A stretch of 64,000 nucleotides of DNA from an uncultured Gammaproteobacteria bacterium (GCA_963714975.1 CAVQQD010000002.1:448001-512000); one strand, 5' to 3'; counted from the stretch's first letter, positions 9,540 to 37,579 are shown. The notes: generated from the sequence alone by a model not told the origin. Translations and numbers: made by a program.

Positions 9540-10005
9540 CAGTAGCTTGCTTTTAATTTCAACCCATTGAATAATAGGAAACCTCAGGTGGTGACACCTG
9601 AGGCGCGCGGAACAGATGTTGACGCATCTGAGCCGAACTTCCACATGACAACTCAGAGAAGGAGTTAGCCACATGACGTTTTTGATTTTAGCCTATCGTT
9701 GGTTGTTTCCAAACTGCTTTTTACATTTTGCCTCTGGCTGTCGTTTTCACTGTACCCTGTTGCAGTCCTCTGCCGTCATTGGCTGCGTGTGGAATGGGGG
9801 TATTGCTGCGAAACGTGTTGGGTCAGGGGATGATTATGTCAAGAGCAGGATAGACTAGAAGCAGCAGAGGTAGGATTTGGCGGAGCAGCTGAATGTTGCT
9901 CTGCTGCTTCGTTCGTAATCCTAGGTTTTTGATATTCACATCACTTAGGAGTTTGAACATGAATAATAAAAAAGTCTTATTAATTGAAGATGAGGACCTG
10001 GCAAT

Positions 10006-11555
10006 CAATGGCACTACCTTAAGCCACAGAATATTTTAAAATCCTTTTATTTATTTTACGTAGCAATTTTTCTTTTTCGATTGCTCTGTTTCTCTTCAAG
10101 GCTGGAAATGGTTTCGGTCTTTGCTTGACTAGCCTGGGCTCCACCCTATCTGGTCTATTTCCAACTTTGTTTTGCACAATTAATTTTAACATCTCAATAT
10201 ACATTTTATGGTTGCTCACCTGATTTGAGCTTATAAAATAAGGAATAAATTCATTTAGTAGCTGCACACTTCCCTTAAAGCTTATTTCCCATGGATTAAC
10301 GCCATACTCATAACAAGCTTTTGCTATAATTATTCTGATAAAATTATATGCTAATAAATGAATTCCTATTTCTTTTCTAACCATTTCTGGTGTTTTGCAC
10401 GATAACATATCCATATTCATGATACTTTTAATACTTCGCAAATTAAGCTCCACCTCCCACCTTCGCTTATATATTTGGGCAAGCTCTGCTTTGTGGTATT
10501 TTTTGTCTAAAAATGTTGTAACGTATATGTGGCCTGATACTTTAAATTCCCGTATGGAAATTTGATCGGGGTATGCCTCATATTGCTTTTGTGTCATCCA
10601 TTCCGGTTTCTGTGGTTTCTCCCAGTTGACAATGTGATCATTTTTACCCAATTTTTGTCCCATTCTAAAATCATAATTCCTTTGACTTTGTCCGCGAAAA
10701 ACACCATCAGCTCCTATTTTTTTTAAGTCCGCCATAAGAAAAAAATTGGGGTAATAACGGTCACCCAGCACAATATCGTCGGCTTTAATGCAGTTTATAA
10801 TTTCTCTTAATAATGAGATTTCTCCTGTGCCCTTTCCTTTGTGAGCCCCTATTGCATAATCTATTACGGTTCCCCGCGTCAGTGACATAACGGCTACTAT
10901 TCGCGCCATAGGAAATCCAGCCCCTTTTTTCTGATTACCATGCTGAGGAAATTTTTTTTGATTAGCTTTTGTATCCGACATTTTGACGGTAAATCCATCA
11001 AATGCTTTTAATTCTCGGCCATAGACTTTCCATCTCATTGGAATAGATTTCAAAGGGAAAGCTCCAGATTCTTTAACTAATGCCTTCACAGTATCTTCAG
11101 GCAATCGCTTTCTGGCCTTACAATAGGGGCCAGTATTTGAGCTTATTTTATTCTGCTTCTTTTTTTTACTATGCAGCTGCTCCACAACAACACCAGCAAC
11201 CGCTTTTTTGCAGGATTTATCTGGATTTAAAACTTGTTTAATAAACGTAAATAAGGTTTTGGTGGGGCTATATATCCGGTCACGATATTCCCGGCACTCT
11301 CTAAGTATCTTCTGACATTTTTCTGAATTCAATAGGTTTAACAGGAAAATGTCTGGTGCACCATCAGCCAATTCTTGTCTTTTATTTTTAACTTGCTTAA
11401 TTTTATTTTTCTTTTTAAAATTCACAGATCAGTTTCCTTTTTTTATTATTGTGTGTTTGCTACAACAATAATATTAAATTTGGAAACTGATTTCATCTTT
11501 TTTCATCTAAATCATAGGCTTATATTCATCTTTGCTCCTTAAGGTAGTGCCATTG
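10006..11555 (-). mobile_element. IS4-family insertion sequence
   Basis: Perfect 18-bp IRs caatggcactaccttaag (10006-10023) / cttaaggtagtgccattg (11538-11555); 11-bp TSD gacctggcaat at 9995-10005 and 11556-11566. Confidence 0.95.
10019..11425 (-). CDS. IS4-family DDE transposase
   Basis: AFDG, LGDRYY and YKRRWEVELNLRSIK (YREK signature). Confidence 0.92.
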   Translation of the reverse strand: MNFKKKNKIKQVKNKRQELADGAPDIFLLNLLNSEKCQKILRECREYRDRIYSPTKTLFTFIKQVLNPDKSCKKAVAGVVVEQLHSKKKKQNKISSNTGPYCKARKRLPEDTVKALVKESGAFPLKSIPMRWKVYGRELKAFDGFTVKMSDTKANQKKFPQHGNQKKGAGFPMARIVAVMSLTRGTVIDYAIGAHKGKGTGEISLLREIINCIKADDIVLGDRYYPNFFLMADLKKIGADGVFRGQSQRNYDFRMGQKLGKNDHIVNWEKPQKPEWMTQKQYEAYPDQISIREFKVSGHIYVTTFLDKKYHKAELAQIYKRRWEVELNLRSIKSIMNMDMLSCKTPEMVRKEIGIHLLAYNFIRIIIAKACYEYGVNPWEISFKGSVQLLNEFIPYFISSNQVSNHKMYIEMLKLIVQNKVGNRPDRVEPRLVKQRPKPFPALKRNRAIEKEKLLRKINKRILKYSVA

Positions 11556-11925
11556 GACCTGGCAATTATTGCAGCTCGAGAAATGCTGAACCGTGCTGGT
11601 TGCGAATGCGAAGTGGCCAAGTCAGGCAAGGAGGCAATTACAAAATTCGATCAGTCTTTTGATCTCATTTTATTGGACATTGGTTTGCCTGATACTCACG
11701 GGCTGGATCTGGCTAGATTAATCCGTAGTCAGAGCGGTGCAATCAGCCAAATACCCATTGTGGTAGTGACTGCACGAGAAAAGGATAGTGGCTGTGATCA
11801 ACGAGCAAGCATAATAGGCTTGAATGGGTATTTCGCCAAACCTCTCACTCAGGAGCTTTGCCAAAAATTAATTGCTGGCATTTCTCGTGGCGAAACAGAT
11901 TTTTGGGAGGAATGATTTTCACGTC

Positions 11926-12090
11926 CCTTCTCCCGCAGCGTTTTTCTGCGGGAGAAGGTGGCCGAAGGCCGGATGAGGGTGTTTGAAGTAGCTTTCAGCG
12001 TTTTGAAACACCTCACCTGCCTTTGAAACTACGGTATTGTTTGCGTTGCTGTTGTGAGATTATCATCCTTCTCCCGCAAAGGAGAAGGAT
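11926..12090. repeat. Family A REP-like doublet (CCTTCTCCC...GGGAGAAGG-GCCGAAGG-CGGATGAGGG)
   Basis: Same motif at 19590-19742, 24037-24080, 26822-26913, 42754-42928, 43390-43413 and 57557-57580. Confidence 0.8.
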
Positions 12091-12179
12091 TTTGCAGTTC
12101 TGGACAGCTGAGTGAATATTGCAGTAGGATCAGACTTGAGCTGAGTTGGGGTTAAATTTTTACTTTTTGGGGGTGAGCT

Positions 12180-13145
12180 ATGTCGCTGGTACGTTTTGAT
12201 TGGGCAATTAAACACTTGCTACGGAATAAGGCCAATTTTGATATTTTAGAAGGTTTTTTATCCGAACTGTTGCACGACACAATTCATATTGAAAGCCTGC
12301 TCGAATCTGAGAGTAATCAAGAGCACGCTACTGATAAATATAATCGGGTAGACTTATTAGTCAGAACCAAAAGTGGACAATTTATTATTATTGAAGTGCA
12401 ATGTGCTAGTCAGTGGGATTATTTGAGCCGAGTTTTGTACGCTACTTCTAAGGTAGTATGCGAACATTTGCATCTAGGAGATGAATACCGCAATGTCCGT
12501 AAAGTAATTTCGGTCAGTATCGTATTTTTTAATTTGGGGTCAGGTAAGGATTATCTATACCAGGGCAATACGATATTTAAGGGTTTGCATTTTCATGATA
12601 CTTTAGATTTGAATTCGCAGGAAAAAGAGTTTTATCGACAAACTTATCAGGTCGAGCCACAGACGCCAGCTCAGATTTTTCCTGAATACTATATTATCAA
12701 AGTGAGCCAGTTCCATGAAAAAGTGCAAGATAAAATTGACGAATGGGTGTATTTGTTGAAACATGCTAAGGTTAAAGAAGGATTTTCAGCCCGTGGTATT
12801 CATAGTGCTGCTAAGAAACTGGATATCTTACGACTAAGCGCAGCAGAACGTCGATCGTATCAGCGTTATATGGAAAGTTTAAGTGATGATGCTAGTTTAA
12901 TGGCTATGATAGAAATGCAGAAGGAAAAGGCTCAGGTTGAAGGCCACGTCAAGGGTCATGCTGAAGGTCATGCTGAAGGTCGTGCAGAGGGTCGTGCAGA
13001 GGGTCGTGCAGAGGGTCATGCTGAGGGCCATGCTGAGGGTTCTAAACGAGAGCGACTTAAAATAGCAAAATCGCTTAAGCAGGCTGGCCTAACTAATGAA
13101 ATTATTGCTCTACATACGGGCTTATCCCCTGAAGAAATTCAGTAA
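12180..13145 (+). CDS. Rpn-family / PD-(D/E)XK nuclease family putative transposase
   Basis: RFDWAIKHLLRNKANFDILEGFLSELL, RVDL...IIEVQ motif, C-terminal G(H/R)AE repeats and IALHTGLS HTH tail. Confidence 0.88.
   Translation: MSLVRFDWAIKHLLRNKANFDILEGFLSELLHDTIHIESLLESESNQEHATDKYNRVDLLVRTKSGQFIIIEVQCASQWDYLSRVLYATSKVVCEHLHLGDEYRNVRKVISVSIVFFNLGSGKDYLYQGNTIFKGLHFHDTLDLNSQEKEFYRQTYQVEPQTPAQIFPEYYIIKVSQFHEKVQDKIDEWVYLLKHAKVKEGFSARGIHSAAKKLDILRLSAAERRSYQRYMESLSDDASLMAMIEMQKEKAQVEGHVKGHAEGHAEGRAEGRAEGRAEGHAEGHAEGSKRERLKIAKSLKQAGLTNEIIALHTGLSPEEIQ
12955..13040 (+). repeat. 12-bp coding tandem repeat (ggtcRtgcWgaR) encoding GHAE/GRAE units
   Basis: Seven G(H/R)AE units read directly in the Rpn C-terminus. 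Confidence 0.9.
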
Positions 13146-23109: not shown

Positions 23110-24027
23110 ATGGAATTTTTTAGAGCGAACACCCAGATTAATTTTATGGCCCAACGCAAATGGGCGGCGTTATTTTCTATTGTGTTATTTGTCGCTTCAA
23201 TTGTTTCACTCATTGTCCACGGTTTGCATTTTGGTTTAGATTTCACTGGGGGCACCCAAATAGAATTAAGTTATCAACAACCTGTTGATTTAAATACCCT
23301 GCGTGAGAAGTTGAATCAGGCCGGTTTTTCTTCAGCGGTGGTGCAATCTTATGGCACGTCAAAAAATGTGCTCATTCGCATTCCTCCACTAAAAGAAGTT
23401 TCTGAAAGTGCATTAAAAGAGCGAATATTACAGGCATTACCTGGTTCCCAATTTCAACAAATAGAATATATTGGTGCGCAAGTAGGTAGAAGTTTAGTGA
23501 CGAATGGCTTATTGGCTGTGTTGGTTTCATTATTAGCAACGATTGCTTATATTGCTTTTCGTTTTGAACTGCGTTTTGCGGTGAGTGCCGCTGTGGCGCT
23601 TATACATGATCCAATTTTAATTCTCGGTGTTTTTTCGTTTTTCAATCTGCAGTTTGATTTAATTTCTTTAGCCGCTCTTTTAACCTGCATTGGTTATTCC
23701 TTGAATGATACGATTGTGGTATATGATCGGGTTCGGGAAAATTTTCGTAAAATTCGCAAGGGAAGTGCAATTGAGGTAATGAATCAATCAATTAATCAGA
23801 CCTTATCACGAACGATCATGACCTCTGGCTTAACTTTGTTAGTAGTGGTTGCCTTATTAATTTTTGGCGGAGAGATGTTGCGGGGGTTTTCAATTGCTTT
23901 AATCGTCGGTATTGGCGTAGGTACTTATTCTTCCATTTATGTAGCAGGATCTTTGGCAATCGCTTTGGGCTTGGATCGCACCCATTTATTGCCGGCGGCC
24001 AAAAAAGAAGAGGATGGGCTACCCTAG
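23110..24027 (+). CDS. secF: Protein translocase subunit SecF
   Basis: GLDFTGG, GYSLNDTIVVYDRVRE, TLSRTIMTS, GTYSSI. Confidence 0.97.
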   Translation: MEFFRANTQINFMAQRKWAALFSIVLFVASIVSLIVHGLHFGLDFTGGTQIELSYQQPVDLNTLREKLNQAGFSSAVVQSYGTSKNVLIRIPPLKEVSESALKERILQALPGSQFQQIEYIGAQVGRSLVTNGLLAVLVSLLATIAYIAFRFELRFAVSAAVALIHDPILILGVFSFFNLQFDLISLAALLTCIGYSLNDTIVVYDRVRENFRKIRKGSAIEVMNQSINQTLSRTIMTSGLTLLVVVALLIFGGEMLRGFSIALIVGIGVGTYSSIYVAGSLAIALGLDRTHLLPAAKKEEDGLP

Positions 24028-24193
24028 TAATATATTCCTTCTCCCCTTGTGGGAGAAGGTGCCGAAGGCGGATGAGGGGAACCTCCCTCAGAAACTGCTG
24101 GATATTCAGCAGCATTTCGCCTAAGATTTGTCGACCCCGGCATGTGCCGGATGTGCAGTACCTTTGAAAACCTTTTCAAAAGGAAGATGGACC

Positions 24194-24799: not shown

Positions 24800-25366
24800 A
24801 TGCCACCCAAGCGAGATAATCTAATTTGGATTGATTTAGAAATGACCGGGCTTAGCCCCGATCGGGATCGTATCCTTGAAATTGCGACGGTAGTAACAAA
24901 TTCTGATCTCACTGTAGTGGCTGAAGGCCCGGTGATGGCTATCCATCAGCCAGATAGTATCTTAGAAATGATGGATGAATGGAATATCAATCAGCATACT
25001 AAGTCGGGGTTAGTGGTTCGCGTGCAAGCAAGTTTGATCACTGAAGAGCAAGCCCAAGCAGAAACTATTGAATTCCTGATGCAGCACGTTCCCCCAGGAA
25101 GATCCCCGATGTGTGGAAATAGTATTTGCCAGGATCGCCGATTTTTATATCGTTGGATGGGGAAACTCGAGCAATATTTCCATTATCGGAACTTGGATGT
25201 CAGCTCTATAAAAATCTTAGCCCAGCATTGGGCCCCGCAAATATTGCAAGGGGTGAAAAAGGACGTAAAACACCTAGCTCTTGATGATGTCTACCAATCA
25301 ATTGCCGAATTAAGGCATTACCGCCAGAATTTCTTCTTGTTGCCCCCCTTGGAAAAAGAGGGTTAG
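24800..25366 (+). CDS. orn: Oligoribonuclease
   Basis: [41 protein letters not shown]. Confidence 0.97.
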
Positions 25367-25621
25367 GGATTCGTCGTCCCTGCAGGATGCCGGGATCCAT
25401 GCCGGGACGACGAGCCCCCTCTCTCCCCTTTTTAAAGGGGGAATTTCCGCAAAATATTCTAACTTATTGATTCTTAAAGACCATTTATTTTTTATCAAAT
25501 AAAAGTGAAATCTCACTGCCATATACTATAATCTTCCAACGAGGGATGTAAAAAGGATAAAAAATCAGGTATGGAGTGGGAATCCTCAGTCCTAATTAAC
25601 AAAACGTGGAGATTAAAAATT

Positions 25622-25840
25622 ATGTTTACCTATTTAGCTGATGTAGAACTTGACACAATTGTTGGTGGTGGCGGATATGGTGGTGGCCATAAAATGCAAC
25701 AGCCAGCATTGCAAATTACTACATTGAATGTATCTAGTGAATCGAAATCATTCTCTTATTCACAAAGCAGCTCAAGCTTACAGTTCTTTAACTTACAAGT
25801 TGGTAAGACGAATGCAAGTCCTGTTAGTATAACCCTGTAG
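25622..25840 (+). CDS. Double-glycine leader peptide precursor P1 (16-aa leader, 56-aa Ser/Gln-rich core)
   Basis: GGAG RBS; MFTYLADVELDTIVGG leader; adjacent C39 exporter; paralogous to 26315-26527. Confidence 0.85.
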   Translation: MFTYLADVELDTIVGGGGYGGGHKMQQPALQITTLNVSSESKSFSYSQSSSSLQFFNLQVGKTNASPVSITL

Positions 25841-25948
25841 TGATAAATGATTAAACTCCCCCTTAATCCCCCATCCTCTGCGTTGGATGGGGTGGTTAAT
25901 GAGGGGTTCCAAGAAGGTCATATGAACAAAAATTTGGGGGGGTCTTAT

Positions 25949-26194
25949 ATGATAAATACCGTACTTACTGATCATTGTTTAGATACACTGAATGTAGTAG
26001 GAGGAAGAGGGTTTGGATATCACCCGCAACATACTGGCTCACAGAGCTCTGGGCAAACGCCGGTGCAGATAACACACTTACAAATAACCAGTTTCAGCGT
26101 ATCGTTTTCTTTTTCTGTAGCTTTTTCAAGCTTGCAATTTACCAATATTCAAATAGGAAATACAGGTCCCAGTCCAGTGACTATTGCGATTTAG
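25949..26194 (+). CDS. Double-glycine leader peptide precursor P2 (hydrophobic beta-strand core)
   Basis: MINTVLTDHCLDTLNVVGG leader; last 42 aa align without gaps to P1/P3. Confidence 0.8.
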   Translation: MINTVLTDHCLDTLNVVGGRGFGYHPQHTGSQSSGQTPVQITHLQITSFSVSFSFSVAFSSLQFTNIQIGNTGPSPVTIAI

Positions 26195-26314
26195 GTTACG
26201 AAGGCTGATGCCTGGAGTGTGGTAAGGAAGTTTTTTATGGACTCGTGAAGGATCAAATAGGATACGTAGGAATGCTGAGTCCAAAAATGTAGTTAAAATG
26301 TGGAGATTAAAAAT

Positions 26315-26527
26315 ATGTTTACTTATTTAGCTGATGTAGAACTTGACACAATTGTTGGTGGATGGGGAAATCACACACCAAAACAACAACAAGCGTTGCA
26401 GATTACTACACTGAATGTATCTAGTGAATCGAAATCATTCTCTTATTCACAAAGCAGCTCAAGCTTGTCGTTCTTTAACTTACAAATTGGTAAGACGAAT
26501 CCAAGCCCAGTTTCTATAAGCTTATAG
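26315..26527 (+). CDS. Double-glycine leader peptide precursor P3
   Basis: Leader identical to P1, near-identical C-terminal core, same GGAG RBS. Confidence 0.85.
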   Translation: MFTYLADVELDTIVGGWGNHTPKQQQALQITTLNVSSESKSFSYSQSSSSLSFFNLQIGKTNPSPVSISL

Positions 26528-26641
26528 TATTTGGAAATTAACCCCCCCCAATCCCTCTACCCCTTTTCCAAAGGGGGTAGAGAGATTTAAAGGGGAAATA
26601 AATTGAAGCGAATTGTAGTGTCATTAATTGGAGAGACAATC

Positions 26642-26809
26642 ATGATTAAATATTTAAAAGATGTAAAAATGGAAAAATTAGCCGGGGGAGGTGGGTGTAG
26701 GCCAAATCCATGCCGTCCACGTCCACCTATCTGCAAGCCGCCCGTAGTGTGCCAGCCTGTAGCATGTCACCCGGTGTCATGCCATCCCCGTCCTCGCTGC
26801 GGTTATTAA
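26642..26809 (+). CDS. Double-glycine leader peptide precursor P4 (Cys/Pro-rich core)
   Basis: GGAGAG RBS; MIKYLKDVKMEKLAGG leader; 39-aa core with 7 Cys and 11 Pro. Confidence 0.8.
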   Translation: MIKYLKDVKMEKLAGGGGCRPNPCRPRPPICKPPVVCQPVACHPVSCHPRPRCGY

Positions 26810-26821
26810 GGTTGTGAAATT

Positions 26822-26913
26822 CCTTCTTCCGCTTGCGGGAGAGGGTGCCGAAGGCGGGTGAGGGTGTTTGAAATGGCTTCAAGCCACGAAGAACATCCTC
26901 ACCCGCCTTCGGC
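26822..26913. repeat. Family A REP-like doublet between precursors and exporter
   Basis: gccgaaggcgggtgaggg...cctcacccgccttcggc inverted arms, matching the 11960-12022 copy. Confidence 0.75.
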
Positions 26914-27010
26914 ATTTTTCTTCTGAAAAAGTGGTTGATTTATATGAAAGACCCACCTATCATGTGATAGATTTGGAAATTAAACCACACCTACGGGAAA
27001 GGAGTTCTCA

Positions 27011-28276
27011 GTGCAAGACAAACCATTATTCCGTGAAGCTGCTTTAAAGCATTTCTCTTCTCCAGAACAGCTAGATCAACTGATTCAAGTAGTTACTCCT
27101 AGGGCTTGGATTGTGGCAGGGACCCTCTACGCTCTTTTATTCATCATCATTCTCTGGTCCATTATTGGCACCATCCCAACCCGCGGTGAAGGGAAGGGAA
27201 TTTTATTGGCTGGCAATGGTGACATTTATGGCGCTGTGGTTCCCCAGGGACCTAGCCGCGTGAGTAATGTTCTGGTAAAACCTGGGGACAAAGTAGTTAA
27301 AGGCCAAATAGTGGCTACTATGTCTCGACCTGATTTAACCGATCAAATCAAAGTCAGCCAAAATTACGTTGCTGAACTACAAAATAAATATAATCAGTTG
27401 CTGACATTGTCGCGTGGTGCTGTTGCCACTCGGGAGCAGCAAGTTGCTATGCAGCAACAAGCACTGCAGCGCTCTTTAACCGATAGTCAGTCAAAACTGG
27501 ATAACATCAGTGAATTATTATCCATTAAGCAAGGAGCATTTAAAAAAGGCATTGAAACCAGACAAAGCGTTGATCAAACGACCCAGGATTATTATAACGC
27601 TAAAAATATCCTCGAAGGATTTAGAAATCAATTAATTCAATTACATGTAGAAGAACGTAGTTTCATTGATCAATGGAATCAAAGATTGCGAGACCTTGAT
27701 TTAAAGATTGTTGATGAAAAAGTTAAGTTGGCCAACTTGCAAAAAGCATTAATTCTTTCCTCCGATGTTGCCAGTCCTGTTGCCGGTATAGTCACTGGCG
27801 TTCAAGCGACTTTAGGGAGCATTCTGAATACGGGTGATTCTGTCGTGAGTGTTGCTAACGAAGGTCAAGGCTTAGATGCTCTGGTTTATCTTCCCCCACA
27901 AATAGGTAAACGCATTAAGCCTGGGATGAAAGCTTTAGTTGCACCGACTACAGTCGAAAAAGCGGAATATGGCAGTATTTTTGGTCATGTAGTGCGGGTG
28001 GCGGCATTTCCATCAAGTCCCCAAGCAATAGAATCAGTTTTGCAAAATCCTGATTTAGTAAAAGCATTTACCAAAGAAGAATCTCCCATTGAGGTGCGTA
28101 TTCATTTAGAAAAAGATCCCGCTACTTATAGTGGATTAAAATGGTCATCTTCCCGAGGGCCTCAACAAAAAATTACGATGGGTACTTTAGCAACTGCCAT
28201 GGTAACGATACGTGAGCAGGCTCCGATCACTTTGGTGATCCCTGCCTTTAGAAAATTTACTGGAATGGAATATTAA
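27011..28276 (+). CDS. NHLM/NHLP bacteriocin system secretion protein (HlyD-type membrane fusion protein)
   Basis: LFREAALKHFSSPEQLDQLIQV, single TM, coiled coil, EYGSIFG, SGLKWSSSRGP, APITLVIP. Confidence 0.92.
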   Translation: MQDKPLFREAALKHFSSPEQLDQLIQVVTPRAWIVAGTLYALLFIIILWSIIGTIPTRGEGKGILLAGNGDIYGAVVPQGPSRVSNVLVKPGDKVVKGQIVATMSRPDLTDQIKVSQNYVAELQNKYNQLLTLSRGAVATREQQVAMQQQALQRSLTDSQSKLDNISELLSIKQGAFKKGIETRQSVDQTTQDYYNAKNILEGFRNQLIQLHVEERSFIDQWNQRLRDLDLKIVDEKVKLANLQKALILSSDVASPVAGIVTGVQATLGSILNTGDSVVSVANEGQGLDALVYLPPQIGKRIKPGMKALVAPTTVEKAEYGSIFGHVVRVAAFPSSPQAIESVLQNPDLVKAFTKEESPIEVRIHLEKDPATYSGLKWSSSRGPQQKITMGTLATAMVTIREQAPITLVIPAFRKFTGMEY

Positions 28277-28344
28277 AATCCCCCCTACACGTCGTCCCGC
28301 GGCTTGTGCGCGGGATGACGTAAGTAGGGGGGGATTTTAGAGGG

Positions 28345-30576
28345 ATGGAATGTATGGAAAAGTGGTATCGAAGTTTAAAAGCTAAATGGTTGGCTTTAAT
28401 CACGCGTTTTAATAACCAGAAAACGTATGTAAAAACTCCTACCATTTTGCAAATGGAAGCAGCAGAATGTGGTGCTGCAGCACTGGGTATTATACTAGCG
28501 TTTTATGGACGTTATGTCCCTTTAGAAGAATTACGTACTGCTTGTGGTGTGTCACGTGATGGCAGTAAAGCGACGAATATGCTCAAAGCAGCGCGCCGTT
28601 ACGGGTTAAATGCTCAAGGAGCTAAAGTTGAGCCTGAATCTTTTGCCGAACTAAAATTACCGGTTATCGTGTTTTGGGAATTTAATCATTTTGTCGTAGT
28701 GGAAGGTTTTGATCGCCAATGGATTTATCTGAACGATCCTGCTACTGGCCCTCGGACTGTCACCCATGCTGATTTTAATGAATCGTTTACTGGGATTGTC
28801 TTATTATTCGAGCCTTCTGAGCAATTTGAACCCGGTGGGCAGAAATCTAATTTTGTGGAGAGTTTGGTACAACGCCTTAAAGGATTAAAGCATGATTTAG
28901 CTTTTGTCGTGCTAGCCAGTTTAGTCGCTGTGGCGCCTAGCATTGCTATTCCAGGACTTACCAAAATCTTTATTGACCAAATACTCATTCAACATCTGTC
29001 TGGATGGTTGCTGCCGTTGTTATGGGGTCTGCTTATTACTGGGGTTTTTCGTGCACTGGTTTCCTATTTGGAACAAATGTATTTGCTCCGGTTGCAATTA
29101 AAAATGCTGTTGACTTCTTCTGCTCGGTTTATTTGGCATGTGTTGCGGTTACCTTTTGGATTTTTTAGTCAACGTTTTGCTGGAGATATTCAATCGCGTG
29201 TTGAGTCTAATGATCGGCTCTCAGAATGGTTATCTGGGGAATTATCCGCAAGCATGGTCAGCATGTTTAGCATGGTCCTATTTGCGGTGGTGATGTTCCT
29301 TTTTGACTGGGTACTCACGCTAGTTGCCATCGTAATTGCTTCAACCAATGCTTGGTTATTTCTCACTATTTCTCGTGGTATCGAGAACGCAAGTCGGCGC
29401 TTACAACAGGAATTCGGTAAATTAAATGGAATTGAGATGAATGGCTTACAAGCGATTGAAACCATCAAAGCTAGTGGCATAGAAGATGATTTCTTTGAGC
29501 GCTGGTCAGGTTATCATGCTAAGACATTAAATAGCCAACAAAAAATTCACTTATATAGTCGTATCCTGCTCGTCATTCCGCAATTACTCAATGGCTTCAT
29601 GGCTATTATAATCTTGGGTTTAGGTGGCTGGCGGATTATTCAAGGGCATCTCAGTATTGGCGGACTAGTGGCTTTCCAAAGTTTATTGGCTAGTTTCAAT
29701 GCGCCGCTAATGACTTTGATTGGCGCTGGCAATAAATTGCAACAAATTAAAGCTGATATAGCTCGTTTGGATGATGTCCAAAAACATCCAGAAGATTCAC
29801 GTCTTACGATTGAAGAAGCACAAGCTCATCAAGAGCCTTTAAAGGGGCAATTAGAACTTAGCAATATTAATTTCGGTTATTCTCCCTTGGACCCTCCTTT
29901 TATCGAAAACATCAATTTGAATTTGCAGCCTGGAAAGCGCATTGCTATCGTGGGAGCCTCTGGCAGCGGAAAATCTACTTTAGCGAAACTTATTTGTGGC
30001 TTGTATTCTCCTTGGTCCGGTGAAATTTCCTGGGATAATGTTCCGATGACAGCTATTTCTGCGGCAACACTGAGCCGATCTTTGGCATTTGTCGATCAGG
30101 AGGTTTTTTTATTTGAGGGCACCATTCAACAAAATCTTACTTTGTGGAAAAAAGGAGTTTCTTTTAGCATTCTGGAAAGTGCGGTTCATGATAGCTTATT
30201 AGAATCAGTGGTGCTAAATCGCCCGAAAGGGTTGTTCAGCGAAGTCATTACTGCGGGTGCTAATTTTAGTGGTGGACAGCGCCAACAATTGGAAATTGCT
30301 CGAGCTTTAGTGCAAGAACCCGCCATTTTAGTTTTGGATGAAGCCACTTCAGCTCTAGATGCTACTACCGAGCAAGGCATTATGGATAATCTAAAGAAAC
30401 GTAATTGTAGTATGCTGTTAATTGCTCATCGCTTAAGTACCATTCGTGATTGTGATGAAATTATTGTGCTAGAGCAAGGAAGAGTCATTGAACGCGGTAC
30501 CCATGACCAGTTGTTTGGTTTACAGAGTGCCTATCATCATTTAGTCCAAACCGAAGGTGAGATAATTCATGCCTAA
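28345..30576 (+). CDS. NHLM bacteriocin system ABC transporter, C39 peptidase/ATP-binding subunit
   Basis: LQMEAAECGAA (catalytic Cys), FNHFVV (His), LNDPA (Asp); TM domain; GASGSGKS, FSGGQRQ, LDEATSALD. Confidence 0.95.
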   Translation: MECMEKWYRSLKAKWLALITRFNNQKTYVKTPTILQMEAAECGAAALGIILAFYGRYVPLEELRTACGVSRDGSKATNMLKAARRYGLNAQGAKVEPESFAELKLPVIVFWEFNHFVVVEGFDRQWIYLNDPATGPRTVTHADFNESFTGIVLLFEPSEQFEPGGQKSNFVESLVQRLKGLKHDLAFVVLASLVAVAPSIAIPGLTKIFIDQILIQHLSGWLLPLLWGLLITGVFRALVSYLEQMYLLRLQLKMLLTSSARFIWHVLRLPFGFFSQRFAGDIQSRVESNDRLSEWLSGELSASMVSMFSMVLFAVVMFLFDWVLTLVAIVIASTNAWLFLTISRGIENASRRLQQEFGKLNGIEMNGLQAIETIKASGIEDDFFERWSGYHAKTLNSQQKIHLYSRILLVIPQLLNGFMAIIILGLGGWRIIQGHLSIGGLVAFQSLLASFNAPLMTLIGAGNKLQQIKADIARLDDVQKHPEDSRLTIEEAQAHQEPLKGQLELSNINFGYSPLDPPFIENINLNLQPGKRIAIVGASGSGKSTLAKLICGLYSPWSGEISWDNVPMTAISAATLSRSLAFVDQEVFLFEGTIQQNLTLWKKGVSFSILESAVHDSLLESVVLNRPKGLFSEVITAGANFSGGQRQQLEIARALVQEPAILVLDEATSALDATTEQGIMDNLKKRNCSMLLIAHRLSTIRDCDEIIVLEQGRVIERGTHDQLFGLQSAYHHLVQTEGEIIHA

Positions 30577-32725
30577 GAGAAATGAAGACTCCATTGTCAA
30601 CGAAGCCGTGATGCATTTGGCTTCTGTGTTTAGCGAAGAAAATTTTAATGAACCTAGCAGTGAGCAAACAGATGCGCTGTGGATTGCGTGCGAATATATT
30701 TGTCGTGATCTAGCGATGGCTATTCAAAAACCTGCGCGAATTCCTGAACAAGCAAATTATCATAGTTTATTGATGGAAATTGCTCGCGCTTCTTCCTTTC
30801 GAGTTCGCCGCGTAGCGCTAAAAGGGCAGTGGTGGCGTTTTGATAATGGTCCCTTGTTAGTATTTGATGCCAATACTCAATCTCCCCAGGCATTGGTTTT
30901 AGATAAAAAAGGCCAGTACCAATTAATTGATCCGATCACTGGTGACAGACGTTTGGTGGATGAAAAAGTAGCACATGAATTAGCTGGCTTGGGTTATACC
31001 TTTTATAAAAGTTTGGCGAATGCCAAGTTAACCTGGTGGGGATTGCTACGTTTTGCATTCCAAGGACGGACTCGTGATGTTTGGCGAACTTTAGCTTTGC
31101 AAGCGGGTGTGGGTTTGTTCGCACTTTTTATTCCGATTGCGACGGGCATTATTTTAGACATAGCCGTACCCAATGCTAACCTTTCTATCTTAGGTCAATG
31201 GGTAATAGGATTACTGGTTTTCACCCTCGTGGCAGCAATTTTTAATGCCAGCCAAGTTTTGTCATTATTGCGTCTGCGTTTTAAGATGAATGCTTATACC
31301 CAAGGGGCTATTTGGGATCGTTTGTTGCGATTACCGGTAGGTTTTTTTCGTACCTTTACCCCAGGGGATCTTGCTGTAAGAGCCTCGGGTGTTGATACCA
31401 TTCAACAAGATTTGACTGATGCTGCGCTGCAAACCTTACTAAGCGGCGTGTTTTCTATCTTCACTTTTGGGCTGATGATTTATTATTCGTCTTCTTTAGC
31501 GTTGGTTGCATTGGTGTTGTTAGCTTTGTTTGTCGCTGCAATCATTCTGGAAGCTCAAATTGAATTAAAATTTCAGCGTCCGGTAGCAAAATTGGGTGGG
31601 ATGTTAGCTGATTTGATGCTGCAATTTCTCACGAATATCAGTAAATTGCGGGTTTGTCATAGTGAAACCCGGGCCTTTGCAATTTGGGCAAAACAGTTCT
31701 CCAGGAAAAATCGGCTTTTTCTCGGTGCCTCATTGTGGGCCATTCGTTTTTCCATTTTTCGGACCTTGCTGGCAACCTTAGGCATAATTGGCTTATACGG
31801 TTTGGTGGGCAGTAAATTCTCATCTTTGAGTTTTGGTAGTTTTATTGCATTTAATGCGGCTTTTGGGCAATTTTTTGTGTCTGTATTAGGATTGGCGGGA
31901 GTGTTTGCAACGATTATCCGTATCATTCCGCTCTATGAACGTATTCAACCTATTCTGCATGCGCAACCCGAGCGTGATATGGAGGGCATTGATCCAGGAA
32001 TTCTCTCAGGACAAATTCATTTGGAAAAAATAGGTTTTCGTTATCATTCTGAGGATGCTTGGGTTTTGGAAGATATTAATATGCATATTCCTCCCGGTAA
32101 AATGGTTGCTTTTGTAGGTCCGACAGGTAGCGGAAAATCAACTTTATTTCGCTTGTTGTTGGGTTTTGAAACCCCTGTGACTGGAACTGTAGCTTATGAT
32201 TATCAGGATCTCAGTAAGCTTAATTTGCGCATCCTTCGAGAACAGTTAGGGGTAGTGTTGCAAAATGGAGTGTTGATGTATGGAACCATTTTTGAAAATA
32301 TTGTCGGTTCATTTCCTCTGACGCAAGAGCAAGCCTGGGAAGCTGCTGCGATGGCTGGTTTAGCTAAAGATATCGAGGCAATGCCCATGGGGATGCAAAC
32401 GTTAATTGCGGAAGGGGGGACCACCCTGTCGGGTGGACAGCGCCAACGTTTAATGATTGCTCGTGCTTTAGTACATAAACCACGCGTCTTATTTTTAGAT
32501 GAAGCGACTTCTTCTTTGGATAATCCAACCCAGAAAGAAATAATGCAACAGTTAGAGCAATTGAAAATAACGCGAGTTATTGCGGCACATCGCCTGAGTA
32601 CCGTCATTAATGCGGATTGTATTTATGTAATACAAAATGGCAAGGTCTTGCAAAGTGGTACTTATGAAAGTCTCATTGCTGAAAAAGGCTTGTTTTTAGA
32701 ATTGGCAAGTAGGCAATTAATTTAA
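30569..32725 (+). CDS. NHLM bacteriocin system ABC transporter, second ATP-binding subunit (no active peptidase)
   Basis: RRVALKGQWWRFDNGPLL, WDRLLRLP, GPTGSGKS, LSGGQRQRL, DEATSSLD. Confidence 0.93.
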   Translation: MPKRNEDSIVNEAVMHLASVFSEENFNEPSSEQTDALWIACEYICRDLAMAIQKPARIPEQANYHSLLMEIARASSFRVRRVALKGQWWRFDNGPLLVFDANTQSPQALVLDKKGQYQLIDPITGDRRLVDEKVAHELAGLGYTFYKSLANAKLTWWGLLRFAFQGRTRDVWRTLALQAGVGLFALFIPIATGIILDIAVPNANLSILGQWVIGLLVFTLVAAIFNASQVLSLLRLRFKMNAYTQGAIWDRLLRLPVGFFRTFTPGDLAVRASGVDTIQQDLTDAALQTLLSGVFSIFTFGLMIYYSSSLALVALVLLALFVAAIILEAQIELKFQRPVAKLGGMLADLMLQFLTNISKLRVCHSETRAFAIWAKQFSRKNRLFLGASLWAIRFSIFRTLLATLGIIGLYGLVGSKFSSLSFGSFIAFNAAFGQFFVSVLGLAGVFATIIRIIPLYERIQPILHAQPERDMEGIDPGILSGQIHLEKIGFRYHSEDAWVLEDINMHIPPGKMVAFVGPTGSGKSTLFRLLLGFETPVTGTVAYDYQDLSKLNLRILREQLGVVLQNGVLMYGTIFENIVGSFPLTQEQAWEAAAMAGLAKDIEAMPMGMQTLIAEGGTTLSGGQRQRLMIARALVHKPRVLFLDEATSSLDNPTQKEIMQQLEQLKITRVIAAHRLSTVINADCIYVIQNGKVLQSGTYESLIAEKGLFLELASRQLI

Positions 32726-32820
32726 AATCCCCCTACCCCTTTTGTGGCCCCTCTCCCCCACCCGAGCCTCAGCGAGGGAAGGTGGGAGAGGGGGAGGCCA
32801 AAAGGGGTAGGGGGATTTTA
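32723..32820. terminator. Long nested hairpin between convergent genes (probable bidirectional terminator/REP composite)
   Basis: Arms taaaatccccctacccctttt / aaaaggggtagggggatttta enclosing a family A-like ctctccc...gggagag stem. Confidence 0.65.
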
Positions 32821-33618
32821 ATTGCTTCGTCGAGTTTTTTCATGGATTAATAAGGCTCCAAACAAAATTATTAGCCAAGATATATACAACCAAACTAAAA
32901 AAATGGGAATCGTCGCTAGAGCACCATAAATTAATTGGTAATCAGCGAAATTATTAATATAAAAGCTAAATCCCTTTTTGGCTAGCTCAAGTAAAATAGC
33001 TGAGATGATCCCAGCAAAAATACTATCTAAGTAGGATACTTTAAAGTTTAATACGATAAGGTAAATTACGCTTAATATAAAAGCATCGACGATTAAGGGA
33101 AAAACCGAGATAAAGAAAGGAGCTTTCGAGGCTAGCGAGAATAGAAAAACACTGAGTATTATGCTTAAGCCCATGATAAAAGGTACAATAATTAATACTG
33201 TCCAACGCAAAATGAATGAGGATTTTTTCTGGGGACATTGTTTATTATTATTAACTGCATTTAAAGAGTCGTTGACAGAAGAGATTAGCAATATTACCGT
33301 GATCACAAAAAATAAAATACTGATAGTTGGGAGTTTGGCGGCTTGATTAATAAAAAGAATGAGATAAGGGACAATTACATTTTGAGTACTGGGTAGGAAA
33401 TAAGTCAGAGCATGATCCTTAATGAAGGAAATGGTGTCATTAAAGAAAGGAAAAAATTGCAGAAAAAAGAGCATTATCACGAAAAATGGAACTATAGATA
33501 AAAGCGTGGTATAGACTAATCCTGAGGCGCGATAAGTAAAGTCTTCTTTGAACAAGCGAAGGAATGCCTGCAAAAATACCCCCAAGATTTTTGGGCGAAT
33601 TCGATCCTGTTTCTTCAT
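32818..33618 (-). CDS. yihY: YihY/virulence factor BrkB family membrane protein
   Basis: ASGLVYTTLLSIVP, YQLIYGALATIPIFLVWLYISWLIILFGA. Confidence 0.88.
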   Translation of the reverse strand: MKKQDRIRPKILGVFLQAFLRLFKEDFTYRASGLVYTTLLSIVPFFVIMLFFLQFFPFFNDTISFIKDHALTYFLPSTQNVIVPYLILFINQAAKLPTISILFFVITVILLISSVNDSLNAVNNNKQCPQKKSSFILRWTVLIIVPFIMGLSIILSVFLFSLASKAPFFISVFPLIVDAFILSVIYLIVLNFKVSYLDSIFAGIISAILLELAKKGFSFYINNFADYQLIYGALATIPIFLVWLYISWLIILFGALLIHEKTRRSN

Positions 33619-33733
33619 GTTGATTACTCCAGCCAAAAACTTTAGCAAGATTTTCTTTTAAAAGCAATTGCTTGCACGCTATAATTGTCCTGTACGCGTT
33701 CCTTCTTCTCATAAACCTTCGGCGGGATATAAA

Positions 33734-34399: not shown

Positions 34400-37300
34400 G
34401 TGAATGGATTTGTGAGTTTATTGGATCTGATAAGGCAGCGTGCAGCTGAATTTCCTAATCAAATTGCTTATCAATTTGTAACGAGTCATGGTACCTATGA
34501 TTCGCTTACCTATGCTCAATTAGATCACAGAGCCACGGCTGTTGCCGCCGTGTTACGGCAGAGCTCTTGTCAGGGTGAAAGAGCTGTGGTGTTATTACCC
34601 CCTGGCCTAGATTATTTGGTTGCTTTTTTTGGCTGCCTTTATGCGGGCGTCATCGCAGTGCCGGTCTATCCCCCTAGTCGAAATCGACATTCACAAAGAT
34701 TATTTAATATTATTGATGATGCTAAAGTAAATTTTTTTATTACCCATCAAGTTTTTGCTAATCAATATCCAGCAGCTCCCGCGGGGATAAAGATCATTTG
34801 TGTTGATTTAATACCAACGCAAGCTGAGCAAGCAATTCCATCGCTTACTCCAGGTCCTGATGAAATTGCTTTTTTACAATACACTTCGGGTTCGACCAAT
34901 AGCCCTAAGGGGGTTATGGTTAGCTTTGGCAATATCGCTGCTAACTTAGAGGTTCTCAAAAATAATTTTGGTGAACAATGTCATGTGACTTGCTCTTGGC
35001 TACCTCCTTACCATGATATGGGATTAGTCGCGGGAATTATTCTCCCTTTATATCTTAAATCGCGGACTATTTTGATGTCCCCCTCGTATTTTTTGCAGTC
35101 ACCTGTGCGCTGGTTGGAAATTATTTCCAAGGAAAAAGTAGTTCTAAGTGGGGCGCCTAATTTTGCCTATGATTTATGTGTCAAAAAAATTCAGGCTGAG
35201 CAATTACGAAATCTCGATCTAAGTTGCTGGAAATATGCAGTCAATGGTGCGGAAGTCGTTCGACAAGCTACAATACAACATTTTATTGATACCTTCGCGG
35301 TGGCAGGTTTTGCTCCGGAAAGAATCTATCCTTGCTATGGTTTAGCTGAAGCAACTTTGATGCTGACAGGTAAAAAAGCTGCTGCAATCACCCATTCATT
35401 ACCATTACTGAAGACAGAATTAGAACGTGGGCAAGTGGTTATAGCTACTGAAGAAAATGCAGAAAATGTGGTGAATTTTGTTTCTTGCGGCGTAGCTCAA
35501 AAAGATCATGATATTTGCATAGTCGATCCGCACACGCATAAACCTCTTCCAGAGCGAAGCTGGGGAGAAATATGGGCCTGTGGTCCCAGCATTGCTAAAG
35601 GTTATTTTAATAAGCCAGAAATGACAGAAACAATTTTTCATGCTGAATTAACTGAGCCTGTTGCCGGGAAGGAATCAAATTCCTATATGCGTACCGGTGA
35701 TTTAGGTTTTATTTATCAGAATGAGCTTTATGTTGGTGGGCGTATCAAGGACCTGATTATTATTAAAGGATTAAACTATTATCCAGAAGATATTGAATTA
35801 ACTGCCACTGCTAGTCATCCTGCATTTGTACCACATGGGGCCGCTGCTTTTTCTGTAGTGGTTGAAAATGAGGAGCATTTAGTAGTTTTGCAGGAAGTTG
35901 CCCGGGATCAATTACATAAAATTGATGTTGCAGCGGCCTTGCGTGCTATCGAAGTGGCTTTGTTAAATGAGTATGGGCTGCAAGCTTACAGTATTGTGCT
36001 CATTAAACCCCATTCTCTTGCAAAAACTTCCAGTGGGAAAATTCAGCGGTGGGTATGTCGAAGTGAATTTTTAACTAATTCACTACGTGTCCTTGCTACC
36101 TCTCACGCTGCTAACGAAGTTAATCACTCCAACTGCGAAACTTATGAGGCAACGCGAGCTTGGTTAGTCGCTTGGTTTGCTCAGCAATTGCGTGTCTCTG
36201 AGAGTGAAATTAGTGGCAGGGATTTGCATGAATTAGAATTTAGCTCTTTAACAGCCGCTGAATTAGCTAGTGAATTGTCTAATCGATTTGGTAAACGCTT
36301 TGAAATTACTAGCCTACTAGAGCAACCTTCTTTAGAAGATTTAAGCCGATTTATCACGAATCATGGAGTAGCGAAAAATGTTCAGCAAAAGAGCTCAGTA
36401 GAGATCGCAGAAAAATCTTTAGTAAAACCTTTAGACCCAGATTTATTGAGTGCAGTAAAAGATATTTACTTCAAGGTAAATGCTGGAATTTCAGCTAACA
36501 ATACTATCATTGATGGTTCGCAGTATATTAATTTTTCAGGTTACAACTATTTGGGAATGTCCGGCGATGCTCAAGTGACTGCCGCTGTGGTGGCTGCCAT
36601 TCAAGAATTTGGCACCTCAGTTTCTGCGAGTCGTTTAGTCTCTGGAGAAAAACCTTTACATCATCAATTAGAAAATGCCATTTCAAAATTAATCGGGACA
36701 GATGAGACTGCGGTTTTATCTTCGGGATATGCCACTAATTTAGCCGTGATTACCCATTTATTTGGTCCGGGAGATTTGGTTATTTACGATGCCTTAGCTC
36801 ATAACAGTATTTTGCAAGGAGCGCAATTTTCAGGCGCTACTTGCATGGCTTTCCCTCATAATGATATAGGAGCATTAGAAGCAATATTGGAGAAGAAACG
36901 CGATCAATATAGGCGGGTATTAATCGTATCCGAAGGGGTATTTAGTATGGATGGCGATATCTGTGAGGCAACAGCATTAATTGCCATTAAAAAAAGATTT
37001 CAATGCTTTCTCATGTTAGATGAGGCCCATTCCATGGGGGTTATTGGCAATACTGGTTGTGGAATCCGTGAATATTACAATCTTAATCCTAAGGATGTGG
37101 ACATATGGATGGGAACTCTGAGTAAATCATTTGCAAGTTGTGGAGGCTATATTTCAGGTAGTTCTGAATTAATTGAAAACTTTAAATATAGTTCAGCTGG
37201 GTTTGTCTATTCAGCTGGTATTTCTCCTGCTAATACTGCGGCAGCTTTTGCTGCAGTTGAGCTCATGAGACAACAACCGGAGCGGATTAATAATTTACAA

Positions 37301-37579
37301 CAACGTCATTCCTTATTATTGTCTTTATTAAGGAAGGCCAGTATTCCAACCGGCAAGAGTAGTGACACTCCGATAATTCCGCTGATGGCAGGATCAACAG
37401 AGGGGGCAATTAAATTGAGTTCTTATTTAAAGACCTGTTACATCAATGCCTTGCCGATTTTTTATCCAGCTGTTGAAAAAACTTTGGCTCGGGTCAGACT
37501 ATTTGTGAACTGTTTACATACTGAAGAACAAGTGCATTATACAGCTGATGCTATTATTGCGGGCTATCAAACATTATGA
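34400..37579 (+). CDS. Fatty acyl-AMP ligase - ACP - alpha-oxoamine synthase (SPT/AONS-type) fusion
   Basis: FAAL: QYTSGSTNSPKG, WLPPYHDMGL, YGLAE, RTGDLG, KTSSGKIQR; ACP-like EFSSLTAAEL; PLP domain YNYLG, HNSI, VFSMDGD, DEAHS, GTLSKSF. Confidence 0.9.
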   Translation: MNGFVSLLDLIRQRAAEFPNQIAYQFVTSHGTYDSLTYAQLDHRATAVAAVLRQSSCQGERAVVLLPPGLDYLVAFFGCLYAGVIAVPVYPPSRNRHSQRLFNIIDDAKVNFFITHQVFANQYPAAPAGIKIICVDLIPTQAEQAIPSLTPGPDEIAFLQYTSGSTNSPKGVMVSFGNIAANLEVLKNNFGEQCHVTCSWLPPYHDMGLVAGIILPLYLKSRTILMSPSYFLQSPVRWLEIISKEKVVLSGAPNFAYDLCVKKIQAEQLRNLDLSCWKYAVNGAEVVRQATIQHFIDTFAVAGFAPERIYPCYGLAEATLMLTGKKAAAITHSLPLLKTELERGQVVIATEENAENVVNFVSCGVAQKDHDICIVDPHTHKPLPERSWGEIWACGPSIAKGYFNKPEMTETIFHAELTEPVAGKESNSYMRTGDLGFIYQNELYVGGRIKDLIIIKGLNYYPEDIELTATASHPAFVPHGAAAFSVVVENEEHLVVLQEVARDQLHKIDVAAALRAIEVALLNEYGLQAYSIVLIKPHSLAKTSSGKIQRWVCRSEFLTNSLRVLATSHAANEVNHSNCETYEATRAWLVAWFAQQLRVSESEISGRDLHELEFSSLTAAELASELSNRFGKRFEITSLLEQPSLEDLSRFITNHGVAKNVQQKSSVEIAEKSLVKPLDPDLLSAVKDIYFKVNAGISANNTIIDGSQYINFSGYNYLGMSGDAQVTAAVVAAIQEFGTSVSASRLVSGEKPLHHQLENAISKLIGTDETAVLSSGYATNLAVITHLFGPGDLVIYDALAHNSILQGAQFSGATCMAFPHNDIGALEAILEKKRDQYRRVLIVSEGVFSMDGDICEATALIAIKKRFQCFLMLDEAHSMGVIGNTGCGIREYYNLNPKDVDIWMGTLSKSFASCGGYISGSSELIENFKYSSAGFVYSAGISPANTAAAFAAVELMRQQPERINNLQQRHSLLLSLLRKASIPTGKSSDTPIIPLMAGSTEGAIKLSSYLKTCYINALPIFYPAVEKTLARVRLFVNCLHTEEQVHYTADAIIAGYQTL

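Follow-up and report, generated by a model that had tools for sequence, protein, structure and literature searches.

We analyzed a 64,000-nucleotide stretch of DNA (the window) from an uncultured Gammaproteobacteria bacterium (GCA_963714975.1, CAVQQD010000002.1:448001-512000; G000:C2:448001-512000 in our set, where G000 is the source genome, of 2.56 Mb in three contigs and 93.75% complete). Between orn and a convergent yihY/BrkB gene lie seven co-directional genes, four encoding small precursors with double-glycine (GG) leaders (P1 to P4) and three encoding an exporter (HlyD, ABC1, and ABC2). The gene content, the intact peptidase triad of ABC1, the family memberships of the exporter proteins, the conserved linkage of peptides and exporter, and the lack of a maturase gene at the locus were all observed directly. 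Judging from these sequence features, the locus is probably a self-contained secretion operon that exports unmodified GG peptides. The fuller statement, which adds a self-associating role of P1 to P3 at the cell surface or in a matrix, is put forward tentatively, with somewhat more doubt than belief. An earlier note on this DNA had reported the four GG-leader open reading frames (ORFs) and the three-gene exporter at 25622-32725, bounded by orn and yihY, and all of these elements are present, at the positions below, counted from the first nucleotide of the window.

24800-25366, + strand: orn (NF003765, E 1.6e-82)
25505..25532, + strand: promoter-like site GTGAAA-16-TATAAT, ~90 nt 5′ of P1 (10/12 consensus matches; a consensus match only)
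25622..25840, + strand: P1 precursor, 72 aa (16-aa GG leader and 56-aa Ser/Thr/Gln-rich core)
25949..26194, + strand: P2 precursor, 81 aa (19-aa GG leader and 62-aa core), a diverged paralog of P1/P3
26315..26527, + strand: P3 precursor, 70 aa (16-aa leader identical to that of P1 and 54-aa core)
26642..26809, + strand: P4 precursor, 55 aa (homologous 16-aa GG leader and 39-aa cationic core)
26846..26920, + strand: hairpin with 34-nt arms, then a U tract, between P4 and hlyD (candidate attenuator or terminator; also a REP-like repeat)
26935..26963, + strand: promoter-like site 5′ of hlyD (9/12 consensus matches; a consensus match only)
27011..28276, + strand: HlyD-type periplasmic adaptor (membrane fusion protein; TIGR03794)
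28345..30576, + strand: ABC1, with C39 peptidase, permease, and ATPase in one protein, that is, a peptidase-containing ABC transporter (PCAT; TIGR03796, Peptidase_C39)
30569..32725, + strand: ABC2, a permease/ATPase subunit without a peptidase domain (TIGR03797)
32818-33648, - strand: yihY/BrkB, convergent

ORF, Pfam, family-model, and hydropathy scans detected no maturase, regulator, or transmembrane immunity-like ORF between orn and yihY.

Precursor genes and leaders

Each of P1 to P4 is preceded by a GGAG-type Shine-Dalgarno sequence 6 to 9 nt 5′ of its ATG. P1 and P3 have the same leader, MFTYLADVELDTIVGG, and the leaders of P2 and P4 end in LDTLNVVGG and MEKLAGG, respectively; the ends given in the earlier note (DTIVGG, LNVVGG, DTIVGG, and EKLAGG) were exactly right. 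P1 and P3 are 84% identical (82% by BLASTP). In a 70-codon alignment they share 47 codons; of the others, 12 show synonymous changes only and 11 show nonsynonymous ones, which mostly fall in the ten residues directly after the GG. P2 stands further off (57% identity to P3; E 7e-10). At the DNA level, the leaders form a three-copy direct repeat, in which the P3 and P4 copies are 90% and 65% identical to that of P1; the latter value marks P4 as a duplicated leader joined to another core. On the combined evidence of the Shine-Dalgarno sites, the codon changes, the leader repeat, and the homologous arrays found beside the exporter elsewhere (see below), P1 to P4 are genuine genes, beyond what chance would produce.

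A 13-residue motif common to NHLP and Nif11 leaders was ascribed by Haft et al. to handling by the transporter (PMC2887384); in it, positions 1, 4, and 6 are acidic, 2 and 7 are Leu, 10 is Val or Leu, and 12 and 13 are GG. Compared by eye, the P1/P3 leader agrees with this motif over its final 13 residues, YLADVELDTIVGG, at positions 2, 4, 6, 7, 10, 12, and 13. As previously claimed, the leaders are short: they comprise 16 to 19 residues and hold only this ~13-residue export motif. This argues against modification, because nothing lies upstream of the motif for an enzyme to hold. None of P1 to P4 matched the NHLP (TIGR03793) or Nif11 (TIGR03798) model, and the whole genome gave 0 NHLP leader matches and one sub-threshold Nif11 match (12.7 bits) at an unrelated place.

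Contigs from RNA libraries provided a hint of expression, although presence in such a library does not prove transcription. Metatranscriptome contigs at least 99% identical to the window came from two soil runs of two studies and fell on P1, within P2 (26016-26166), and across the P2-P3 spacer into the beginning of P3 (26177-26327); the soil contig on P1 (25606-25830) had 0 differences to the window. A third run, of uncertain kind, yielded a contig over 25906-26175 (P2). The run shares were small (0.06 to 0.07). Within 25400-28400, P4, the hairpin, and hlyD received no contig from any of the three runs, and this uncovered part counts as no evidence.

The exporter

All three exporter proteins scored above the curated cutoffs of their families: HlyD with TIGR03794 (292 bits; cutoff 156.2), ABC1 with TIGR03796 (1011 bits; cutoff 853.3), and ABC2 with TIGR03797 (820 bits; cutoff 709.4). 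The C39 domain of ABC1 (PF03412; E 1.2e-36) has its Cys (ECGAA), His (FNHFVV), and Asp (LNDPATG) aligned on the catalytic positions of PCAT1 (4ry2). These data bear out the exporter type and the intact Cys/His/Asp that had been proposed for the locus. For the N-terminal 174 aa of ABC2, no similarity was detected in the PDB or with the ABC1 C39 domain. For the outer membrane, at least four TolC-like proteins with two OEP repeats are encoded elsewhere in the genome. The TIGR03796 cutoff was passed by 7 of 41 genomes. A search for the ABC1 locus across genome contigs returned only distant exporters from unrelated phyla (28 to 46% identity), and these were set aside.

The source genome also contains a second, paralogous cassette of the NHLM type (G000:C3:732,700-738,800; locus L016), with the following layout in locus coordinates.

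6283-6459 and 6491-6667, + strand: peptides
6713-8875, - strand: ABC2
8872-11061, - strand: ABC1
11063-12346, - strand: HlyD
12350-12787, - strand: cyclic nucleotide monophosphate (cNMP)-binding protein

Its HlyD scored over the family cutoff (248 bits), and its ABC1 (842.7 bits; 42% identical to the window ABC1) and ABC2 (700 bits) scored just under theirs; the cNMP-binding gene is weakly like TIGR03896. The two 58-aa precursors, convergent with the cassette, have ~46-aa leaders ending in KVVGG and cores of only ~12 aa, and they match no NHLP or Nif11 model. A nonribosomal peptide synthetase gene adjoins this cassette.

Conservation of the peptides and their linkage to the exporter

The taxonomic family of the source organism is represented by nine species-level genomes in the set searched. 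The P1-P3 peptide family occurs in three of them, G000 and two genomes of another genus, G002 and G006, each time beside an orthologous exporter (ABC1 is 62% identical to its G006 ortholog). The G002 array has four such peptides and one of a second subtype, and the G006 array has six and one; both carry the same Shine-Dalgarno signature as the window. Homology of their leaders, e.g., M-x-TY-x-C-D-V-E-L-x-x-V-A-GG, to the P1 and P3 leaders is clear, and the cores of the family align weakly but consistently (alignment A1; 13 rows). No maturase gene lies beside the cassette in any of the three loci (3/3). Linkage of the peptides to this exporter without enzymes, which the earlier note had singled out as a check in other genomes, held in two of two relatives. 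In a fourth genome, G007, the exporter lies on a contig of 4.2 kb, which breaks off before any precursor would come into view. At the HlyD-proximal end of the G002 and G006 arrays (L017, 3013-3285, - strand; L018, 17131-17352, + strand), we also noted a further conserved peptide subtype, with the leader MNNR-x-EFV-x-D-x-AL-x-N-[IV]-VG-[AV]-G and a core containing VGPI-x-V-x-GP-x-x-IGNNYY.

The peptide family is very narrowly distributed. A word-indexed search of 5.8 billion proteins with P3 returned P3 itself and P1 only, and the A1 profile retrieved 13 proteins among 1383 candidates from the same collection: those of the family genomes, a peptide almost identical to one of G006 (contig of 10.3 kb), and a peptide from a metagenome contig of 940 bp. 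Full HMMER analysis of 1.84 billion representatives with A1 gave nine proteins at E ≤0.001, seven of them family members; the other two, a repeat protein and a multi-leader precursor matching by its leader only, were unrelated. Outside the window, the P1-P3 family was thus found only in the two related genomes and on two metagenome fragments.

The gene order in G002 and G006 (ABC1-ABC2-peptides-HlyD) is a circular permutation of that in the window (peptides-HlyD-ABC1-ABC2), and the cassette there sits between fabD/fabG/fabF-mltG-tmk-scpA-scpB-rluB and an acyl-CoA dehydrogenase gene. The permuted order and the different housekeeping neighborhood suggest a relocation of the cassette. The relatives offered no site that could be defined as empty. 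Since orn and yihY are unlinked in the relatives to each other and to the cassette, yihY was rejected as a member of the system.

P4 is rarer still. No candidate, not even P4 itself, was found in the 5.8-billion-protein collection, in which no gene caller had called this ORF; an ESM Atlas search was uninformative (best value, 0.76). A tblastn-type search detected one homolog, in G006 on a different contig from the exporter locus. It has a GG leader and then SSCRPKPPHCRPTPPPCLPKPPHCQPRPRPCGRW, its identity to P4 in alignment A2 is 57%, and its five Cys are spaced exactly seven residues apart. Full-length P4 matches were present in 2 of 401 sampled genomes of the class. In seven of the nine genomes returned by this class-wide search, the matches were partial and of low complexity (17 to 20 bits, two with in-frame stops), and they were discarded. 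The surroundings of the G006 homolog (G006:C17, locus L044) are as follows.

7448-7996, - strand: MerR-family regulator
7936-8457, + strand: MauE-family membrane protein
~8589-8747, + strand: P4 homolog

The homolog thus lies 120 bp downstream of the MauE gene, which is divergently paired with the regulator. The regulator ends in ...DCEQAGHKVVCPII, which looks CueR-like. The same MerR-MauE pair occurs in the window genome (C3, ~303 kb), there without a peptide. From this single case (n = 1), there may be a link between the Cys/Pro-rich peptide and metal or thiol-redox chemistry.

Maturation enzymes at the locus and in the genome

Genes for maturation of ribosomally synthesized and posttranslationally modified peptides (RiPPs) were sought in the whole source genome. 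LanC, SPASM, and PqqD/RiPP recognition element (RRE) models had 0 matches; LanB (PF04738) had none either, but its control matched nowhere, so that this result says nothing. Three YcaO-domain ORFs are present, all unlinked to the locus. Two form a tandem pair on the same contig, 235 kb away (G000:C2:711,500-714,050; L028, 8535-9740 and 9760-11016, + strand), encoding proteins of 401 and 418 aa that are weakly SagD-like (TIGR03604, 67 and 79 bits; cutoff 219). The pair is preceded by a 56-aa ORF (8263-8433) and adjoined by a gene for an ankyrin-repeat protein of 562 aa with weak similarity to AnkG, a Dot/Icm effector. The third (G000:C3:471,700-474,430; L029, 6698-8293 and 8277-9425, - strand) encodes a 382-aa YcaO protein (PF02624, 244.6 bits) and is followed by a gene for a 531-aa protein whose N-terminus is TfuA-like by eye; if that neighbor is indeed TfuA-like, the two would be a thioamidation-type pair. 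The earlier note had called the system enzyme-free and had proposed a genome search for RiPP maturases and RRE proteins. The description stands for the locus and for the two of two peptide-bearing relatives, and for the LanC, SPASM, and PqqD/RRE models in the genome; it fails for the genome as a whole, given its three YcaO genes.

Properties of the mature peptides

The predicted P1 to P3 cores (54 to 62 aa) contain 45 to 52% Ser/Thr/Gln/Asn and are nearly uncharged (1 to 3 basic and 0 to 1 acidic residues). They are punctuated by short hydrophobic runs of Phe, Ile, Leu, and Val (such as FFNLQ[IV]G and FTNIQIG) and have a conserved C-terminal SPV[ST]I[STA][LI]. The P4 core (39 aa) is of another kind, with 11 Pro, 7 Cys, 6 Arg/Lys, and no acidic residue, and six of its seven Cys begin a C-x-P unit. 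The helical amphipathic moment of the P2 to P4 cores was below that of 984 to 988 of 1000 shuffles, in agreement with the earlier statement that the cores do not look like cationic amphipathic bacteriocins.

Comparison with known systems

Cyanobacterial clusters with this three-gene cassette were classified as group V by Wang, Fewer & Sivonen in 2011, together with CAP_ED proteins; such clusters have a mean of 3.08 precursors, and 16 of 37 precursors are neither NHLP nor Nif11 (PMC3140520). The notion that the exporter normally accompanies long leaders and modifying enzymes was, accordingly, too strong. According to the published accounts, the present locus is like the group V/NHLM cassette (PMC2887384) in its HlyD, short-type C39-ABC, and peptidase-free ABC proteins, in its dense GG array, and in that enzymes are not required locally. 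The second cassette of the genome shares with group V a cNMP-binding gene of the CAP_ED type, whereas the window cassette has none. Unlike group V, the locus belongs to a gammaproteobacterial host of a small uncultured family, its precursor families are orphans, and the genome has no NHLP or Nif11 precursor.

Class II microcins, as described, carry a GG leader of ~15 aa (more broadly, an N-terminal signal of ~15 to 19 aa ending in GG, GA, or GS) and mature to <10 kDa; a PCAT works with a membrane fusion protein to export them, and a small membrane protein encoded next to them confers immunity (PMC13188072; PMC12219008). The present locus resembles the MccV-type arrangement (PCAT, membrane fusion protein, and TolC) in its short GG leaders, its products of <10 kDa, its adjacent PCAT and membrane fusion protein genes, and its TolC encoded elsewhere, and the paralogs likewise share leader and C-terminus. 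It differs in having two ABC subunits, no adjacent immunity or cupin gene, no GAV/GAA motifs in the cores, and no detectable similarity to named microcin families. With the cyanobacterial tandem bacteriocin (CTB) family (NF038167/PF28158), the peptides share tandem genes, GG leaders, and lengths of 70 to 85 aa. NF038167 matched 5 of 13 P1-P3 family members, all from G002 or G006, weakly and over the leader and part of the core, with all scores below the 32-bit cutoff (15.9 and 17.7 bits for two of them; best E 6e-4); the window peptides had no match at E ≤10. CTB clusters were also the ESM Atlas neighbors of P3 (0.91 to 0.92), sharing 159 of 256 features, under the 170 typical of true members.

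Two systems link GG peptides to matrix formation. In Synechococcus elongatus, EbfG1 to EbfG4 are matrix or surface components encoded by four tandem small genes with GG secretion motifs (PMC4997328); EbfG1 to EbfG3 form amyloid, with the hotspot motif A-hydrophobic-N-I-G/S (PMC9981879). In Acinetobacter baumannii, MccAB1 is both antibacterial and a former of amyloid fibers, and it drives biofilm formation; tests of six putative microcins of that species found one with antibacterial activity and three that promoted biofilm (PMC13188072). The EbfG hotspot resembles F-[FT]-N-[LI]-Q-[IV]-G of P1 to P3, a by-eye comparison with the published motif only (PMC9981879). Like the present locus, the EbfG system pairs tandem small GG-motif genes with a C39 transporter. 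That transporter is reportedly named PteB. NF038167 had no match in the S. elongatus control genome. Our literature searches found nothing on tandem bacteriocin together with cyanobacteria, and among the matches listed, none relevantly combined microcins or GG peptides with Legionella-type bacteria; supplementary tables of surveys may hold related hits.

The hairpin and the repeat elements

The hairpin at 26846-26920 has a predicted folding energy of -74.2 kcal/mol (z -11.1; none of 200 shuffles folded as stably) and is followed by TTTTT. Its arm has ~9 approximate copies in the genome, which makes it a member of a dispersed palindromic repeat family. GC-rich elements like repetitive extragenic palindromic (REP) sequences occupy several spacers of the peptide array (25367-25470, 25850-25910, 26540-26600, and 26820-26920); an 18-mer of the upstream one has 12 genome copies, and one of the elements produces a spurious 34-residue N-terminal extension of the P2 ORF (25847...). 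Similar elements encode the ORF fragments of the "PLWEKVPKADEG" type at 24014-24124.

Proposed mechanism and alternatives

Based on the established mechanism of PCATs and of microcin type I secretion, we propose that P1 to P4 are translated as precursors whose leaders carry GG at -2/-1, with positions -4, -7, and -12 hydrophobic and -8 acidic. Cleavage after the GG would fall to the C39 peptidase of ABC1, and ABC1/ABC2 with HlyD and an unlinked TolC-type channel would export the 39- to 62-residue products in one step. The hairpin with its U tract, acting by attenuation, and the second promoter-like site would probably keep precursor transcripts in excess over those of the exporter. Once outside, P1 to P3 may act as self-associating surface or matrix peptides like EbfG1-4 and MccAB1 rather than as classical membrane-active bacteriocins, and P4 may be an accessory cationic Cys/Pro-rich peptide serving as a cross-linker, metal binder, or antimicrobial. 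The metal-binding role for P4 is hinted at by one observation, the position of the G006 copy behind the MerR regulator and the MauE gene. The matrix role is slightly favored over an antibacterial one because of the missing immunity gene and the Ser/Thr/Gln-rich cores.

Several results weigh against this proposal. The beta-strand amphipathic moment was not above that of shuffles in any of 11 cores (z ≤1.7), and internal 9-mer repeats were not significant (the best was reached by 93 to 210 of 1000 shuffles). AlphaFold2 modeling of P3 with the 13-row alignment A1 gave a mean predicted local distance difference test (pLDDT) score of 50.7 and no secondary structure. No curlin or other amyloid family was among the six Pfam families matched at E ≤10 by any of the 13 peptides. 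A prediction of a four-copy P3 core complex scored 0.01 against a mark of 0.42, which counts neither for nor against binding. The suggestion that the cores look structural or fiber-like found no direct support, since neither strand periodicity nor repeats exceeded shuffles and AlphaFold2 found no fold. Because the hairpin is one of a dispersed family of repeats, terminator function may not be what it was selected for. The three YcaO-domain genes weigh against the word "unmodified," and so does Prochlorococcus, whose group V cassettes are served by a LanM with its gene at another site, a maturase that acts in trans on their precursors (PMC3140520). Finally, the nearest named families, CTB among them, are bacteriocin families.

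The best-surviving alternative, possible though doubtful, is that the products are antibacterial, being bacteriocins of a class II microcin-like or a CTB-like type that are secreted by the same mechanism, perhaps as a cocktail of several peptides; immunity could then be encoded elsewhere, come from the exporter, or be needless if the producer lacks the target or receptor. The architecture and the mature sizes (39 to 62 aa) fit class II microcin loci, and the paralogs vary mostly just after the leader while the C-terminus is kept, as described for A. baumannii microcins (PMC13188072). P4 is strongly cationic and Pro/Arg-rich. To the weak NF038167 matches and the CTB Atlas clusters (0.92) may be added PF10439, matched by 2 of 13 members, but all of these bacteriocin-family matches are below cutoff and none comes from a window peptide; the cores, moreover, are polar, Ser/Gln-rich, and of low helical amphipathicity. 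Verified immunity genes directly adjoin their microcin and encode transmembrane proteins of ≤216 aa, according to the published set (PMC12219008). A 19-residue hydropathy of ≥1.6 is reached by a single ORF between orn and hlyD, which is antisense within P2, and neither the window nor G002 has an adjacent transmembrane immunity-like ORF. The one candidate in the three loci is a strongly hydrophobic 57-aa ORF inside the G006 array (L018, 15412-15585, + strand; maximum 19-residue hydropathy, 2.08), which favors the antibacterial explanation but is not conserved.

A bolder form of the matrix proposal is, in our view, unlikely. It takes P1 to P3 as major and minor subunits of a previously undescribed extracellular cross-beta fiber or coat, distinct from curli and Fap, built through a RiPP-type exporter, and P4 as the founder of a new peptide class; P4 and its G006 homolog would be secreted Cys-spaced polyproline peptides that cross-link the fiber by disulfides or bind metal. 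The makers would be soil gammaproteobacteria of a small family that shows traits of intracellular life. The earlier note had suggested a RiPP export machine repurposed for a surface fiber or coat. Even if true, this would not be a new principle, because EbfG1-4 and MccAB1 are already known, and nothing here shows a fiber.

It is quite unlikely that the peptides are RiPP precursors modified in trans, with azolines or thioamides installed by the tandem YcaO pair or the YcaO/TfuA-like pair. The three YcaO ORFs (the tandem pair weakly SagD-type), cores rich in Ser/Thr (P1 to P3) or Cys (P4), and the documented trans-acting LanM of group V cassettes (PMC3140520) speak for this explanation. Against it, the leaders lack a recognition region beyond the export motif, and no E1-like/ocin-ThiF partner, dehydrogenase, or RRE was seen beside the YcaO genes. 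YcaO also does not track the peptides: G006 (99% complete, with 6 to 7 peptides) has no YcaO, and there is a single one in each of G002, G003, and G008, the last two lacking the peptides and all three matches being similar in strength to that of L029; the tandem pair is confined to G000 among the nine family genomes. Very unlikely, last, are quorum- or competence-type pheromones or factors directed at a protist host: GG-leader export does also serve signaling peptides, ComA is among the solved PCAT relatives of ABC1, the genome bears marks of an intracellular lifestyle, and a protein with ankyrin repeats that weakly resembles AnkG is encoded elsewhere in it, but no sensor kinase or response regulator adjoins the array in any of the three loci, and mature peptides of 54 to 62 aa in three to seven paralogs are long and numerous for pheromones.

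Downstream of the locus, the window contains a 1059-aa ORF (34400-37579, + strand) that by eye looks like a fatty-acyl-AMP ligase fused to a carrier domain and to an alpha-oxoamine synthase-type aminotransferase.

Significance

The layout of the locus has precedents: it is a member of the NHLM three-gene exporter kind, working like a class II microcin or group V locus. Its cargo consists of two very rare peptide families, and in 3/3 genomes the locus has no maturase and no conserved immunity gene. If the peptides are unmodified and self-assembling, the principle by which a GG peptide plus a PCAT builds matrix, so far shown in one cyanobacterium and one Acinetobacter microcin, would extend to an uncultured gammaproteobacterial lineage and to a two-ABC NHLM cassette, and two compact new peptide families open to experiment would be gained as well. 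If they are instead bacteriocins, they would form a new immunity-less sequence class in a lineage with none described. In both cases, the locus is a clean natural example that the last ~13 residues of NHLP/Nif11-type leaders suffice as an export module.

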